DNA of 64,000 nucleotides from a virus. Of this stretch, positions 22,532-54,685 are shown in pieces; the first letter of the stretch is position 1; each line of letters starts with the position of its first letter. The position numbers and the translations under genes are program-made. The DNA is taken from positions 15,666 to 79,665 of IMG/VR virus record IMGVR_UViG_3300009509_000009. One strand, given 5' to 3'. The notes under the pieces were generated by a model. The model was not told the DNA's origin. It worked only from the letters and a program-made list of their open reading frames with translations, and did not search any database.

Positions 22532-23275
22532 TTAGAGGGCTGCCAGACGGCCCCTACTGCCTGTCTTCTTCATCTGGCGGGCCAGGTCATCGAAGGCGTC
22601 GATATCATTCGAGGCGAGGTGCTGAAGGAGCTTCTGGCTTGGCCCGAGCTCTGCGGCTCGCTCTACGAACAGTACTGCGATAGTGGACAGGTTCTTTCTG
22701 GCGACGACCAGGAGGTCACGAATGCGTTGAAGCTCGAGATTTGTTTTTAGGTCTTGGTGGGTAGCCACGAACTTGGTGGCCCTCATGCACAGCTGGTAGA
22801 AAGTCTGCCAAGAGTGATCTACTTTTAGCATATCATTCAGCCGATCGATCTCTAGCTCTGTGATCTTGATAAAGATCTCGCAGAAACTGAGAAGCCTGTC
22901 TGTAGGCCAGGAATCTTCCCCGAGCTCCATCTCTACCACCTGGTAAAGTTGGATGAGCTGGTCGTCCTCCATCTTAGTGAACCTCGATGCCACGAGACCG
23001 TTGACCTCGAAGAGCATGTTCAGGGCCTCTTTGAGGCGTTCGACTTCTCGCTCGAGGAATAGTAGGCGACGTATCATATCGCCAGGAGCAATCTCTCCTG
23101 CTATGTTCAGTCGATGGATCTCTGCGACGTCAGCAGTGCGTACATAGCAGCTGTCGCCCTCGTACTTCCTGCGAATGAGGCCTTGGTCGCATAGGTCATG
23201 GACCTTCTTCTGGGGGCAGTTGAGGATCCCCGCTGCCTTTGAAACTGGAATGAACTCTTTAGGGTTGCTTCCCAT
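22532..23275 (-). CDS. Helix-turn-helix (excisionase/MerR-like) DNA-binding protein
   Basis: N-terminal 'IPVSKAAGILNCPQKKVHDLCDQGLI' followed by coiled coil. Confidence 0.7.
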   Translation of the reverse strand: MGSNPKEFIPVSKAAGILNCPQKKVHDLCDQGLIRRKYEGDSCYVRTADVAEIHRLNIAGEIAPGDMIRRLLFLEREVERLKEALNMLFEVNGLVASRFTKMEDDQLIQLYQVVEMELGEDSWPTDRLLSFCEIFIKITELEIDRLNDMLKVDHSWQTFYQLCMRATKFVATHQDLKTNLELQRIRDLLVVARKNLSTIAVLFVERAAELGPSQKLLQHLASNDIDAFDDLARQMKKTGSRGRLAAL

Positions 23276-50650: not shown

Positions 50651-51007
50651 GTGCTGTTCAGTCCAAAGAAGGTGGTCGAGGCCACAGAGGTCAACGAACG
50701 CACGCTGATCTACTTAGCTGAGAAGGGAGTCATCGGCGTAGCAGTTGAGCCCCAGGGTCGTGGCACGAGCCGTCAGTACTCCAAGTTCAACATCTTTCAG
50801 ATCCTCCTCGTCCGTGCTCTTAGGCGATCGGGGATTGAGTTCGGCAGGATAAAAAATTACCTGCAAGAACACGAGAAACGTATCTGGGAGCTAATGCGAG
50901 GAGACGAGGTTGAGTACGTGATCACCATCAGTGATCATGGCGAGATAAGGATCAACCTCACGAACCTGCGCGAGTCCTTCGACCGCGCCATGGAGATGTT
51001 GGGATGA
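50651..51007 (+). CDS. MerR-family HTH regulator
   Basis: 'FSPKKVVEATEVNERTLIYLAEKGVI...GRGTSRQYS...LRRSGI'. Confidence 0.75.
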   Translation: MLFSPKKVVEATEVNERTLIYLAEKGVIGVAVEPQGRGTSRQYSKFNIFQILLVRALRRSGIEFGRIKNYLQEHEKRIWELMRGDEVEYVITISDHGEIRINLTNLRESFDRAMEMLG

Positions 51008-51915
51008 AGAGAGTGTGCTTCTACCACAGGGCTGACAAAGACGGCCACTGCAGCGGTGCCATCGTGGCCAACCACTTCGGAAAACACAACGTCGAGATGA
51101 TCGGGTGGAACTACGGAGAGGAGTTCCCCTGGGACAAGATCGATAAGGACACCCAGGTGTTCATGGTCGATCTCAGCCTGCAACCGTGGGACAAGATGGT
51201 CAGGCTCATGGGCGAGTGCAAGCAGCTCGTCTGGATTGACCACCACAAAAGCGCCATTGACGAGTACGTCAAGTGGCGTGAGACGTCGGGTCAGGGTGAC
51301 CACATCGTTGAGGTCAGCACCAAGCATGCAGCCTGCGAGCTCGTGTGGAACTACTTCTACGGTGGCGAGCTCGAGGACCTCGACGATGATAAGGAGATGC
51401 CGGCCACTGTGCGCCTCATTGGTCGCTACGACATCTGGGAGTGGGAGAACGTACCCAACGCCCTCGAGTTCCAGTACGGGCTGCGCATCTACGACACCAA
51501 TCCAGAGAACCAGGAGCTGTGGGGACAGCTGCTCGCCGCCGGCACCATGCTCATTCCCCGCATCGTCGAGGAGGGTAGGACGATTCTCAAGTACAAGCAG
51601 GTGCAGGACAAGATCCACATCAACTCAGCTGGCTTCGAGCTCGAGTTCCGTGGCCTGCGCTTCCTCGCCATCAACGAGATGTTCAACAACAGCCAGCTCT
51701 TCGATTCGCGCTTCGATCCCGAGAAGCACGACGCCATGCTCACCTTCGGCTACCGCAAGGGAAAGTGGCACCTCGGCTTCTACTCGCCCAAGAAGATGTG
51801 CGCTGATCGTGGCATCGACCTCGGCGCCATCGCCAAGGAGCTTGGAGGCGGAGGACATCCTGGTGCTGCTGGGTGTCAGGTTGAGGAGCTGCCATTCGAG
51901 TTACCACGGAGGTGA
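51004..51915 (+). CDS. DHH/DHHA1 family phosphoesterase
   Basis: 'YHRADKDG', 'MVDLS', 'WIDHH', 'GGGGHPGAAG'. Confidence 0.9.
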   Translation: MKRVCFYHRADKDGHCSGAIVANHFGKHNVEMIGWNYGEEFPWDKIDKDTQVFMVDLSLQPWDKMVRLMGECKQLVWIDHHKSAIDEYVKWRETSGQGDHIVEVSTKHAACELVWNYFYGGELEDLDDDKEMPATVRLIGRYDIWEWENVPNALEFQYGLRIYDTNPENQELWGQLLAAGTMLIPRIVEEGRTILKYKQVQDKIHINSAGFELEFRGLRFLAINEMFNNSQLFDSRFDPEKHDAMLTFGYRKGKWHLGFYSPKKMCADRGIDLGAIAKELGGGGHPGAAGCQVEELPFELPRR

Positions 51916-51918
51916 TCT

Positions 51919-52758
51919 ATGGCCAAGGAGAAGACCGCCAACAGGCCGAACAAGGAGGCTCTAGACCGCGTGTGGGACATCCTGTGTAGGCCGGCTGTGG
52001 ACTTAGACATGACGGTGGAGGAGGTACGTCGCGTTCTGCTAAGTGGGATGACGGTTGAGAACGATAAGGGAATCTACAACCCATGTCCAGCGTGCGGAAT
52101 GAACAATACCGCGTACAAGATCAGTTTGAGAAGGGACAACGCTGATCAATTCCTACGATTCGTCCATCGTTATCTAGACCTGAAGAAGAAATACCCAGAC
52201 GACCCAGAGAAACATTGGATAGACTGCCCAAAATTCTTCAAGATGGAAGACCAGAAGCAGAGAGACTTCACCAAGCTGAAACGTTGGGGACTGATCATAG
52301 CTCACCCGACCAAGGCTGGTCATTGGCTGCCCACAATGTTGGGGATCAAGTACGCATTCGGCATGTTCCCTATTCCGAAGTGGGTGTGTTCCTTCCACGA
52401 CATCGTAATTGGATACACGAGTGATTGGGTATTCATCGATGACGTGCTGGCTATGCCCCCGGGGTGGTCGTTCGACACGCACGTTCGTGCAGGAGCTGAG
52501 GCCCTTCAGGACCTCGACGAAGGACAGATGGTCTACATGAATCTCCTAAAGAGAAAGTCAGGAGCTATAAGAAATAGGACGAAGACGAGTTCTGACTGGG
52601 ATGATCTATTCAAGTATATGTATGACGCGGACCTCATAGAGAAGGTCGCTGTAGAGGAGATCAAACCAGGACCAAAGTTAGAAGTGGGTGATGGTCAGCC
52701 CGAACCCGATCCAGACTTTGGTAGACCAAGAAAACCAAAACAGCTTTACCTGTTCTGA
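51919..52758 (+). CDS. Hypothetical protein (CPAC Zn motif, possible winged helix)
   Basis: 279 aa, GGAGG RBS. Confidence 0.7.
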   Translation: MAKEKTANRPNKEALDRVWDILCRPAVDLDMTVEEVRRVLLSGMTVENDKGIYNPCPACGMNNTAYKISLRRDNADQFLRFVHRYLDLKKKYPDDPEKHWIDCPKFFKMEDQKQRDFTKLKRWGLIIAHPTKAGHWLPTMLGIKYAFGMFPIPKWVCSFHDIVIGYTSDWVFIDDVLAMPPGWSFDTHVRAGAEALQDLDEGQMVYMNLLKRKSGAIRNRTKTSSDWDDLFKYMYDADLIEKVAVEEIKPGPKLEVGDGQPEPDPDFGRPRKPKQLYLF

Positions 52759-52772
52759 AGGAGGACTGAACC

Positions 52773-53030
52773 ATGCTTTGACCGCATTGTGTTCTCTGGG
52801 CGGTGCTCGGAGCAATACCAGTGATCGGATCAATCATAACCTGGTGGAGGATCAGACGTGCTAAGGCTCACGACAATCATCAGCGGAGGGCAGACAGGAG
52901 CAGACCGTGGTGGTCTGAGAGCGGCAATAGCCTGTGGGCTCGAGCACGGGGGTTGGTGTCCAAAGGGTCGACGCGCCGAGGATGGAAGAATTCCCTCGAT
53001 GTACCGCCTGATGGAAGATACTACCACTGA
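52773..53030 (+). CDS. Candidate small selenoprotein (M-L-U-P-H-C plus TM helix)
   Basis: AAGGAGG-8nt-ATG CTT TGA CCG CAT TGT, in frame with ORF 52803..53030; SECIS-like hairpin follows. Confidence 0.55.
52786..52816 (+). promoter_or_regulatory. Bacterial SECIS-like hairpin
   Basis: ATTG-[TGTT bulge]-CTCTGGGC-GGT-GCTCGGAG-CAAT; apical GGU loop starts 20 nt after the UGA. Confidence 0.5.
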
Positions 53031-53349
53031 CTATCGATCTCGAACCAGGCTCAACATCAGAGCAGCGGACTCTACCTTGATCTTCAACTACGGGAAGCTG
53101 AAGGGGGGAACGCTGTTCACAGTCAACAGCTGCGAGGAGCTCGAGAAGCATTACCTCGTGGTAGACCTAGACATGGGACCTAGCGAACTCGTGGCAAGCC
53201 GAAGCGTCGAGCACTACTTCCTTGCCGCAGATCCGAGAGTGGTCAATATAGCTGGGCCAAGAGAGTCCAAGGTCCCTGGCATTGAGATCACCGTGGAGGG
53301 ACTTCTTGCTCATGTGTTGGGCGTGGTGCTCAAGGAGGAGATCGGATGA
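52858..53349 (+). CDS. SLOG-superfamily / putative molybdenum-carrier-like protein
   Basis: 'IISGGQTGADRGGL', 'GGWCPKGR', 'RTRLNI', 'NIAGPRES'. Confidence 0.85.
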   Translation: MLRLTTIISGGQTGADRGGLRAAIACGLEHGGWCPKGRRAEDGRIPSMYRLMEDTTTDYRSRTRLNIRAADSTLIFNYGKLKGGTLFTVNSCEELEKHYLVVDLDMGPSELVASRSVEHYFLAADPRVVNIAGPRESKVPGIEITVEGLLAHVLGVVLKEEIG

Positions 53350-53654
53350 ACCAGTGCATCAGATGCAGGGTGGTGCGAGATACCAAGGCCTCGCTCTGTC
53401 CTGTGTGCATGAAGGAGATCAACGAGCTCGGTCTTTGGAACAGGAGGACTGAGCATATCATCTGGGGTCTTACCATCCTGCGACTGTATGGTGAGGTCAC
53501 AAGTGACGCTCAGCATGACGAGCTCACTGCTGGGCTGCCTGATGGCTTCACCCCGACTGACGCAGACCATCAGCTCATCATCCTCAGTGAGGACGACGGC
53601 GGTCTCAACTGGCACTACGACGAGGACGAAGGCTACTACGGCTTCTTCACCTGA
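53346..53654 (+). CDS. Hypothetical protein
   Basis: 102 aa; CxxC...CxxC N-terminus. Confidence 0.7.
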   Translation: MNQCIRCRVVRDTKASLCPVCMKEINELGLWNRRTEHIIWGLTILRLYGEVTSDAQHDELTAGLPDGFTPTDADHQLIILSEDDGGLNWHYDEDEGYYGFFT

Positions 53655-53663
53655 GGAGGGACC

Positions 53664-53972
53664 ATGCTGACCAGAGAAGAGTGGGTACGACTAGGCAACA
53701 AGATCGGCGAGACCGTAGCCGAGAAGAACAAAGCCTACGGTGACTCAGTCCGCAAGACAGCGAGGATGATGCACATCCTCTATCCGGACGTACCTGAAGA
53801 GACGATCTCGAAGATCCTGCTCACCGTCCGGATACTAGACAAACTGAGCAGGATCGCAAACGACCCGGGGTTCAACGATGAGGATCCAGCCCTCGACATC
53901 TGTGGGTATGGGCTACTCTTCCACGACCTCATCACCAATGGCCTAGAGCCAGAGAAAGGTACTGATCAATGA
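53664..53972 (+). CDS. DUF1599-like (nucleotide-modification-associated, all-alpha) protein
   Basis: 'EKNKAYGDS...RILDKLSRI...DICGY'. Confidence 0.7.
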   Translation: MLTREEWVRLGNKIGETVAEKNKAYGDSVRKTARMMHILYPDVPEETISKILLTVRILDKLSRIANDPGFNDEDPALDICGYGLLFHDLITNGLEPEKGTDQ

Positions 53973-54685
53973 CCAAGAAGGATTTCACCTCGATCATCTT
54001 CGTGCTCGACAAAAGCGCATCCATGTCCACCAAGCGTGAGCAGGCGGTCAGCAGCTTCGACGAGTTCGTGTTGGACCAGAAGAACCAGAAGGGCGAGTGC
54101 TCGATGACACTCGTCATGTTCGACACGAACTACGGAGTCATCCTAGTCAACGAGCCCATCGAGAAGGTCAAGCCCCTCGAGGAGATTGGCTACGCCCCCG
54201 GGGGCAACACCGCCCTCATCGATTCGGTGGCCAGAGCCATCAACGAGGCTGGTGACGTGTTCGCTCGCATGAAAGAGGGTGAGCGTCCCGACAACGTGGT
54301 GCTCGTGATTCTCACTGACGGCGAGGAGAACAGCTCCAAGGAGGTCACCAACCAGGAGCTGCAGCAGCTCATCGACCACCAGGTGGACAAGTACGATTGG
54401 AAGATCGTCTATCTCCACCAGGGTGCAGGCGCCTTCGCTCAGGCCAACAAGATGGGCATGAAGGCCATGCACTCCAACTACTTCGTCGGCGAGGTCAAGA
54501 CCGGCGGTGGTCTGGGAGTCCGCAAGGCCATGAGGGCAGCCTCCTACGCCGTGGCCTCCACACGCTCGAGCGACAGCAAGAGCATGGACAAGGGCGGCAC
54601 TGAGGACCTCCTCAGTGATGACGATGCCTACGACCGCTACCGCAGCAAGCAGGCCGTCACGTCCAGCACGAGAGGTAACCAATGA
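53969..54685 (+). CDS. vWA domain protein
   Basis: MIDAS 'FVLDKSASM', 'GNTALID', 'ILTDGEENSSKE'. Confidence 0.9.
   Translation: MTKKDFTSIIFVLDKSASMSTKREQAVSSFDEFVLDQKNQKGECSMTLVMFDTNYGVILVNEPIEKVKPLEEIGYAPGGNTALIDSVARAINEAGDVFARMKEGERPDNVVLVILTDGEENSSKEVTNQELQQLIDHQVDKYDWKIVYLHQGAGAFAQANKMGMKAMHSNYFVGEVKTGGGLGVRKAMRAASYAVASTRSSDSKSMDKGGTEDLLSDDDAYDRYRSKQAVTSSTRGNQ

Follow-up and report, generated by a model that had tools for sequence, protein, structure and literature searches.

The window, a 64,000-nucleotide stretch of DNA, comes from a linear IMG/VR virus record of 79,665 bp that is 43% complete by the CheckV estimate, has a G+C content of 53-61%, and includes tail, head and RNAP genes of a phage. 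The site described here is a 99-nt gap between a gene encoding a 279-aa protein and a gene encoding a circularly permuted YpsA SLOG protein. A small open reading frame starts in this gap. Its third codon is TGA, and a hairpin follows at once. The last base of the stop codon of the 279-aa gene is also the first base of the Shine-Dalgarno sequence of the small ORF. The features of the locus are these:

51919..52758, plus strand: 279-aa phage gene, stop TGA at 52756-58, no Pfam family, function not assigned.
52758..52764, plus strand: Shine-Dalgarno sequence AAGGAGG, read directly, with an 8-nt spacer to the ATG.
52773..53030, plus strand: small ORF read through UGA, 85 codons plus stop, encoding M-L-[UGA]-P-H-C, a TM helix and a basic tail.
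52779..52781, plus strand: in-frame TGA, codon 3, opposite the first Cys of the CPHC motif of homologues; the next base is C.
52782..52828, plus strand: SECIS-like hairpin according to RNAfold, 20 bp with two bulges, -19 to -20 kcal/mol.
52791..52847, plus strand: predicted TM helix VLWAVLGAIPVIGSIITWW, followed by RIRRAK, from sequence and alignment, with a predicted topology.
52794..52812, plus strand: upper stem CUCUGGGC/GCUCGGAG of the hairpin, 8 bp including two G-U pairs, closing a C-GGU-G loop.
52843-51, plus strand: ribosome binding site GGTGGAGGA of the SLOG gene, inside the small ORF and ahead of the GTG start at 52858.
52858..53349, plus strand: circularly permuted YpsA SLOG gene, 163 aa, Pfam PF12694, E 3e-49.

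An earlier note on this DNA, made from the sequence alone, had called attention to a strong ribosome binding site, AAGGAGG with an 8-nt spacer, ahead of ATG CTT TGA CCG CAT TGT. This can be read directly from the sequence, with ATG at 52773-75, then CTT, TGA at 52779-81, and CCG CAT TGT at 52782-90. After CPHC the frame continues as VLWAVLGAIPVIGSIITWW-RIRR, with a hydrophobic stretch of 19 residues ahead of RIRRAK, and remains open until the TGA at 53028-30. The last 57 codons overlap the SLOG gene in another frame and give an Arg-rich off-frame reading. There is no second disabling change in the small ORF; the Shine-Dalgarno sequence, ATG and frame are all intact. The upstream flank of the UGA consists of two codons only, and the 28 residues downstream of it are homologous to database proteins.

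To find relatives, the translation of 52773-52907, with the TGA rendered as Cys, was compared by phmmer to 1.84 billion cluster representatives. Three small proteins of 32-41 aa were recovered, each of which lines up with the start of the query from residue 1 on: P0006 (41 aa, beginning MCPHCAFMAFLIALPVVGGLITWWRMRKVKK, E 2.6e-6), P0007 (32 aa, MCPHCALMGLLLSLPVIGAIISWWRIRKLKKD, E 4.7e-6) and P0009 (39 aa, beginning MICPHCVGVALLASIPGVSLLVLWWKLRKMKRK, E 9.7e-4). Two other phmmer hits, P0005 and P0008, are repeat proteins and were set aside as spurious. Members of the family share a layout of N-terminal M(I)CPHC, one TM helix, and an end of the form WWR-x-R/K. The four-way alignment is ungapped in its shared part, and its invariant columns are C-P-H-C, a Leu, a Pro, WW, an Arg and a Lys. 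The window sequence shares every one of these columns except the first Cys, which is the TGA, and is 44-63% identical to the homologues. The length of the N-terminus agrees as well, with M-L-U in the window against M-I-C in P0009. The homologues are 32-41 aa long and stop shortly behind the basic tail, whereas the window frame runs to 85 codons.

The earlier note had placed the TGA exactly at the first Cys of a CxxC motif ahead of a TM helix and had looked to homologues for the residue at codon 3. Such homologues exist, and all three (P0006, P0007 and P0009) have Cys opposite the TGA. This placement follows from a BLASTP alignment in which codon 3 was left out altogether, scoring 41 bits with 57-61% identity over 28 ungapped residues.

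The family is very sparsely represented. A profile search of 5.8 billion proteins returned P0006, P0007 and P0009 only, each on one metagenomic contig, and Pfam, NCBIfam and PHROGs hold no family for these small proteins. The PHROG family phrog_3913 (E 0.004 with P0009) was discarded, having no match to the window and matching 13 of 14 control genomes as well, so that it is unspecific. ESM Atlas gave sub-threshold leads only. Searches of IMG/VR, JGI metagenomes and GTDB genomes with the family alignment yielded no locus that could be confirmed, and a degenerate DNA pattern allowing TGA, TGC or TGT at the first Cys found zinc-ribbon or out-of-frame chance matches only. Among GenBank phages, blastn with 51900-53700 gave no match, and no meaningful hit came from tblastn, whether the query was the peptide or P0006. 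Neither the rest of the record nor 509 kb of other viral loci with a SLOG gene contains a similar ORF with an N-terminal C/U-x-x-C and a TM helix. Such loci, 80 in number, are at most 47% identical, and their tblastn matches were rejected as off-frame echoes of the conserved GGQTGADR motif. Judged by sequence comparison, the 99-nt spacer carries a real gene, from a very rare and undescribed family of predicted single-pass membrane micro-proteins. The matches to homologues essentially exclude the reading of the small ORF as a chance mini-ORF.

The hairpin 3' of the UGA has a minimum free energy of -20.1 kcal/mol by RNAfold in a 52-nt context, of which the upper stem alone gives -9.6 kcal/mol. 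Its GGU apical triloop, at 52802-04, begins 20 nt after the UGA, just where the earlier note had put it, and the upper stem begins 12 nt after. The upper stem and loop are as that note described them; its outer pairing of ATTG with CAAT around a TGTT bulge differs from the pairing of lowest energy. A published consensus for bSECIS elements gives an apical loop of 3-9 nt and an upper stem of 4-16 bp, a G in the first two loop positions with the core N1-G-[G|U]-N-N2, a distance of 16-37 nt from UGA to apical loop, and an MFE of -7.5 kcal/mol or lower (PMC13188914). Scored by these rules for bacterial SECIS elements, the hairpin agrees with all four constraints, having a 3-nt loop on an 8-bp upper stem, the core C-GGU-G, a distance of 20 nt, and -20.1 kcal/mol. 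The window contains no second copy of it, and a reading as a terminator was ruled out by the lack of a T-run.

Several backgrounds show how unusual the hairpin is. Dinucleotide shuffles average -14.5 +/- 2.8 kcal/mol against -20.1 kcal/mol for the native sequence (z -2.0), and 8 of 200 fold as well. When the same peptide is recoded with synonymous codons, 75 of 3000 sequences (2.5%) fold as well, with a mean of -14.3 kcal/mol. An equally stable hairpin with SECIS geometry follows 34 of the 3102 TGA triplets (1.1%) in the 79.7-kb record, and among 39 intergenic candidates for TGA read-through in the record, only the site at 52782-52828 has one. These p-values are moderate, about 0.01-0.04, and belong to a site originally picked because of its hairpin; the independent evidence is the homologues. 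Comparison of the four family members adds that W9 and G13, the only two residues unique to the window sequence, both fall in the upper stem, which is what a SECIS imposed on coding sequence would give, a soft argument that depends on three homologues. When 52000-53600 was searched with Rfam covariance models at E<=10, nothing relevant came up; no single model captures bacterial SECIS elements well (PMC12013277).

Copies of the region were found in other assemblies. Run X5 has a 1534-nt contig that does not differ from the window anywhere in 52400-53400 (1001 nt). In run X19, from another study and from mangrove, a 403-nt contig matches 52759-53073 with four differences, three of them without a listed position and none listed at 52779-81. 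The runs of three further studies contain 99-100% of sampled 31-mers of 51900-53700. Contigs of run X15 cover parts of the region, the TGA not among them, and run X14 gave no matching contig. No RNA runs are listed among the 20 runs that contain 51900-53700. The TGA is thus confirmed in independent assemblies (runs X5 and X19), and its presence in contigs of other studies means that it is not an assembly slip. The other copies compared are near-identical, at least about 98.7%; the family has one known TGA-bearing sequence. Ahead of 52759 the X19 contig extends for 88 nt that bear no relation to the window, this flank ending ...GCTGATGCTGGATG directly before AGGAGG. This one low-depth contig hints that the cassette from the Shine-Dalgarno sequence onward occurs in a second genomic context; the junction may be a mosaic junction or may reflect a chimeric contig.

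Near-identical copies occur in runs from seven studies, covering marine sediment, soil, mangrove and samples coded 'organism A', and this is a widespread sediment phage. Four runs labelled 'organism A' contain the stretch, which might point to a host or to an enrichment. The three named habitats abound in Sec-using Desulfobacterota, which bears on the host only circumstantially.

The 279-aa protein has a weak match to phrog_2693 and one relative, P0002, at 66% identity; searched singly or as an alignment, it found nothing in IMG/VR or JGI contigs. The SLOG N-terminus, MLRLTTIISGGQTGAD, is common to relatives at 85% and 69% identity, and its MLRL is kept in both P0010, the 85% identical SLOG, and P0011. 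The JGI/IMG annotation gives a SLOG product of only 116 aa (P0004). The full 163-aa product from GTG 52858 is called in Logan assemblies and is supported by P0010 and P0011. P0002 and P0010 probably lie on one Logan contig, a length of 47,081 bp being the longest listed for each, and synteny is probably kept in this related phage (66% protein identity for the 279-aa gene, 85% for SLOG). The protein collection contains no small CPHC protein from this relative; a TGA there too would fit, and suppression by the gene caller through overlap with SLOG fits equally. Further along, an ORF of 102 aa at 53346-53654, which overlaps the stop codon of SLOG (ATGA), probably encodes a zinc ribbon, given its two pairs of C-x-x-C (CIRC...CPVC); it has no Pfam or PHROG family. 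A DHH/DHHA1 phosphoesterase (phrog_4771, E 1e-34) is encoded at 51004-51915 and a 238-aa phrog_7371 protein at 53969-54685. Together with the cpYpsA SLOG gene, these look like a nucleotide-signal-processing or counter-defence neighbourhood.

We favor the reading that the UGA at codon 3 is decoded as selenocysteine, with a probability of roughly 0.55. The earlier note had proposed a small membrane-anchored U-x-x-C peptide made with the Sec system of the host, and the homologues, the hairpin and the independent assemblies make that the best single reading of the locus. It falls short of being established because a single TGA-bearing sequence is known, and because a recent mutation of TGY to TGA would explain everything except the hairpin and the exact position. 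For these two features the chances can be estimated. The position is the first Cys of a C-x-x-C motif, the usual site at which Sec takes the place of Cys. Of the paths by which a single step creates a nonsense codon in the gene, 1 of 14-15 reaches codon 3 (~5-7%). For a random nonsense mutation, the joint chance of the position (~0.05-0.07) and the hairpin (~0.01-0.025) would be about 1e-3, while under Sec decoding both are expected. Counted against Sec are the low prior for a phage selenoprotein, the missing family-type early stop, and the run of 57 codons into SLOG. The 43%-complete record has no tRNA-Sec, selA, selB or selD, so that Sec decoding would depend wholly on host machinery. With Sec at codon 3, a distance of 10 nt separates the start codon from the base of the stem, which falls within the footprint of initiation. 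The lower stem would have to melt before initiation, and we know of no natural precedent for a Sec codon so near a start codon.

It is possible, if somewhat doubtful, that the gene is broken instead. By this account a recent transversion of TGT or TGC to TGA at codon 3 left a product of Met-Leu only, and the hairpin is a coincidence of G+C-rich sequence coding for a TM helix. A single substitution suffices, and it could be young, the Shine-Dalgarno sequence, ATG and frame having not yet decayed among copies at least about 98.7% identical. Nor is stable folding anything unusual in sequence coding for this peptide, as the average of -14.3 kcal/mol for the recodings indicates. TGA is the commonest stop of this phage, ending 41 of 78 long ORFs, both neighbors included, and would be acting in its ordinary role. 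The untidy loss of the family-type stop with its long SLOG overlap, and the lack of Sec machinery in the phage record, fit a broken gene too. What this account needs, however, is two coincidences, a stop falling on the redox Cys (~5-7%) and a full bSECIS hairpin behind it (1-2.5%), and it must accommodate the same TGA across several studies and habitats, apparently in a second genomic context.

Expression of the gene by a route other than Sec is improbable. It could occur through leaky near-cognate read-through of UGA-C, inserting Trp or Cys, or through re-initiation at GTG 52803 after the two-codon ORF, which would produce a TM peptide without the CPHC motif. In E. coli a C after the UGA makes for weak termination, and the in-frame GTG 52803 is where the 75-aa ORF of the mechanical ORF list begins. 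This GTG has no Shine-Dalgarno sequence, however, and starting there would cut the TM helix to about 15 residues and lose the only invariant motif. Plain leakiness would give very low yields and leaves the hairpin unexplained.

Very improbable is the absence of any gene, with a structured intergenic RNA next to a chance Shine-Dalgarno sequence and two-codon mini-ORF. In a variant, the Shine-Dalgarno sequence possibly serves a frame of 28 codons that starts at TTG 52778, ends at TAA 52862-64, and overlaps the SLOG start. Codon log-odds do not separate the frames, the TTG 52778 frame (+0.4) scoring as well as the CPHC frame (-3.1). Most strong sites with a Shine-Dalgarno sequence and ATG outside coding sequence in the record are true gene starts, and about a third of such sites in the record are not. 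At 22722-22730 the sequence CAGGAGG-N6-ATG CGT TGA makes a second strong Shine-Dalgarno sequence with a two-codon ORF, encoding M-R-stop; it lies within the region of a minus-strand ORF and is probably there by chance. Because of this example, a Shine-Dalgarno sequence with a mini-ORF is by itself weak evidence. Against the absence of a gene, three independent proteins match the CPHC frame from residue 1, with E down to 2.6e-6, and no similar ORF is present elsewhere in the record or in the 509 kb of SLOG-bearing loci. An altered code in which every UGA is read as an amino acid (code 4 or code 25) has next to no likelihood, since nothing beyond the open frame speaks for it, while TGA ends 41 of 78 long ORFs, the protein ends of both neighbors agree with those of their relatives, and G+C is 53-61%.

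If the UGA is decoded as selenocysteine, ribosomes would start at ATG 52773 by way of AAGGAGG. With the UGA in the A site, the lower stem would be melted, the ribosome covering about the first 12-13 nt downstream. The 8-bp upper stem and the C-GGU-G loop, 12-20 nt downstream, would stay folded and recruit the SelB-GTP-Sec-tRNA(Sec) complex of the host. The product, M-L-U-P-H-C followed by the TM helix, would insert with its basic tail in the cytoplasm, by the positive-inside rule, and would place a selenol/thiol pair at the outer face of the inner membrane, towards the periplasm. The U/CPHC end would then be a redox or metal-binding center at the membrane surface, thiol/selenol-disulfide exchange or binding of soft metals being the most natural guess by analogy. 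We infer the decoding as Sec, the topology and the chemistry from the features described above.

The earlier note had also suggested that UGA decoding acts as a selenium-sensitive control on the overlapping SLOG gene. Nothing specific speaks for this idea; SLOG is equipped with a separate GGAGGA ribosome binding site and a GTG start, with MLRL conserved. Any link to SLOG is speculative and would depend on SelB bound close to the start, or on ribosomes that pass over the SLOG ribosome binding site. A dual role can be imagined, given a SECIS that starts 10 nt behind the ATG and a small ORF that crosses the SLOG ribosome binding site and start: the locus would both encode a periplasm-facing U-P-H-C selenopeptide and form a SelB- and selenium-dependent gate on initiation of the micro-protein and translation of SLOG. 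We consider this unlikely. Were it true, the phage could read the selenium or redox state of its host.

As in E. coli fdhF-type genes, an in-frame UGA stands opposite the Cys of homologues, at the first position of C-x-x-C, and is followed at once by a hairpin whose small G-G/U apical loop lies 20 nt beyond the codon. In fdhF, the loop residues G23-U24 lie about 20 nt after the U of UGA and the upper stem begins about 11 nt after the codon; in the window the upper stem begins 12 nt and the loop 20 nt after the UGA. Unlike fdhF-type genes, this is a phage gene with Sec at codon 3, a SECIS that overlaps the initiation region, no bulged U on the 5' arm, and a single UGA-bearing member. Compared with the rest of the CPHC family, both the TGA at the first Cys and the 57-codon C-terminal extension are peculiar to the window, its relatives stopping at 32-41 residues.

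The active site of DsbA, Cys-Pro-His-Cys, is identical to the family motif, and the motif is predicted to face the periplasm in the family as well. Unlike in DsbA, there is no thioredoxin fold, and the motif sits at the extreme N-terminus of a single TM helix, so that the likeness is at the level of the motif only. The peptide amounts to six residues and a TM helix and has no Pfam or NCBIfam match. Thanbichler and Boeck reportedly found in 2002 that SelB binds to a SECIS-like element in the leader of E. coli selAB, an element that represses initiation. The window resembles that leader in having a SelB-type hairpin near a translation start, where SelB binding could also gate initiation. It differs in that its hairpin follows an in-frame UGA in an ORF supported by homologues, and a regulatory role here is speculative.

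Phrase searches of a literature library found no description of a selenoprotein encoded by a bacteriophage. A 2026 review of prokaryotic selenoproteomes never mentions phages (PMC13188914), and a marine survey reports selenoprotein families with few or no viral sequences (PMC9402790). Recoding of UGA as Sec is itself known; novel here would be its occurrence in a phage, the family of micro-proteins, and a Sec codon in third position. For annotation, the consequence is that gene callers miss the gene, and the spacer would be filed as non-coding. If the gene is broken, the locus still defines a previously unnamed family of CPHC micro-proteins. If the UGA is read as Sec, the locus would represent a new and very small selenoprotein family with a membrane-tethered U-P-H-C motif, encoded in a compact 60-nt cassette of the form SD-ATG-N3-UGA-SECIS. 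It would then point to a Sec-using host, and to sediment phages able to use the SelB system of that host.
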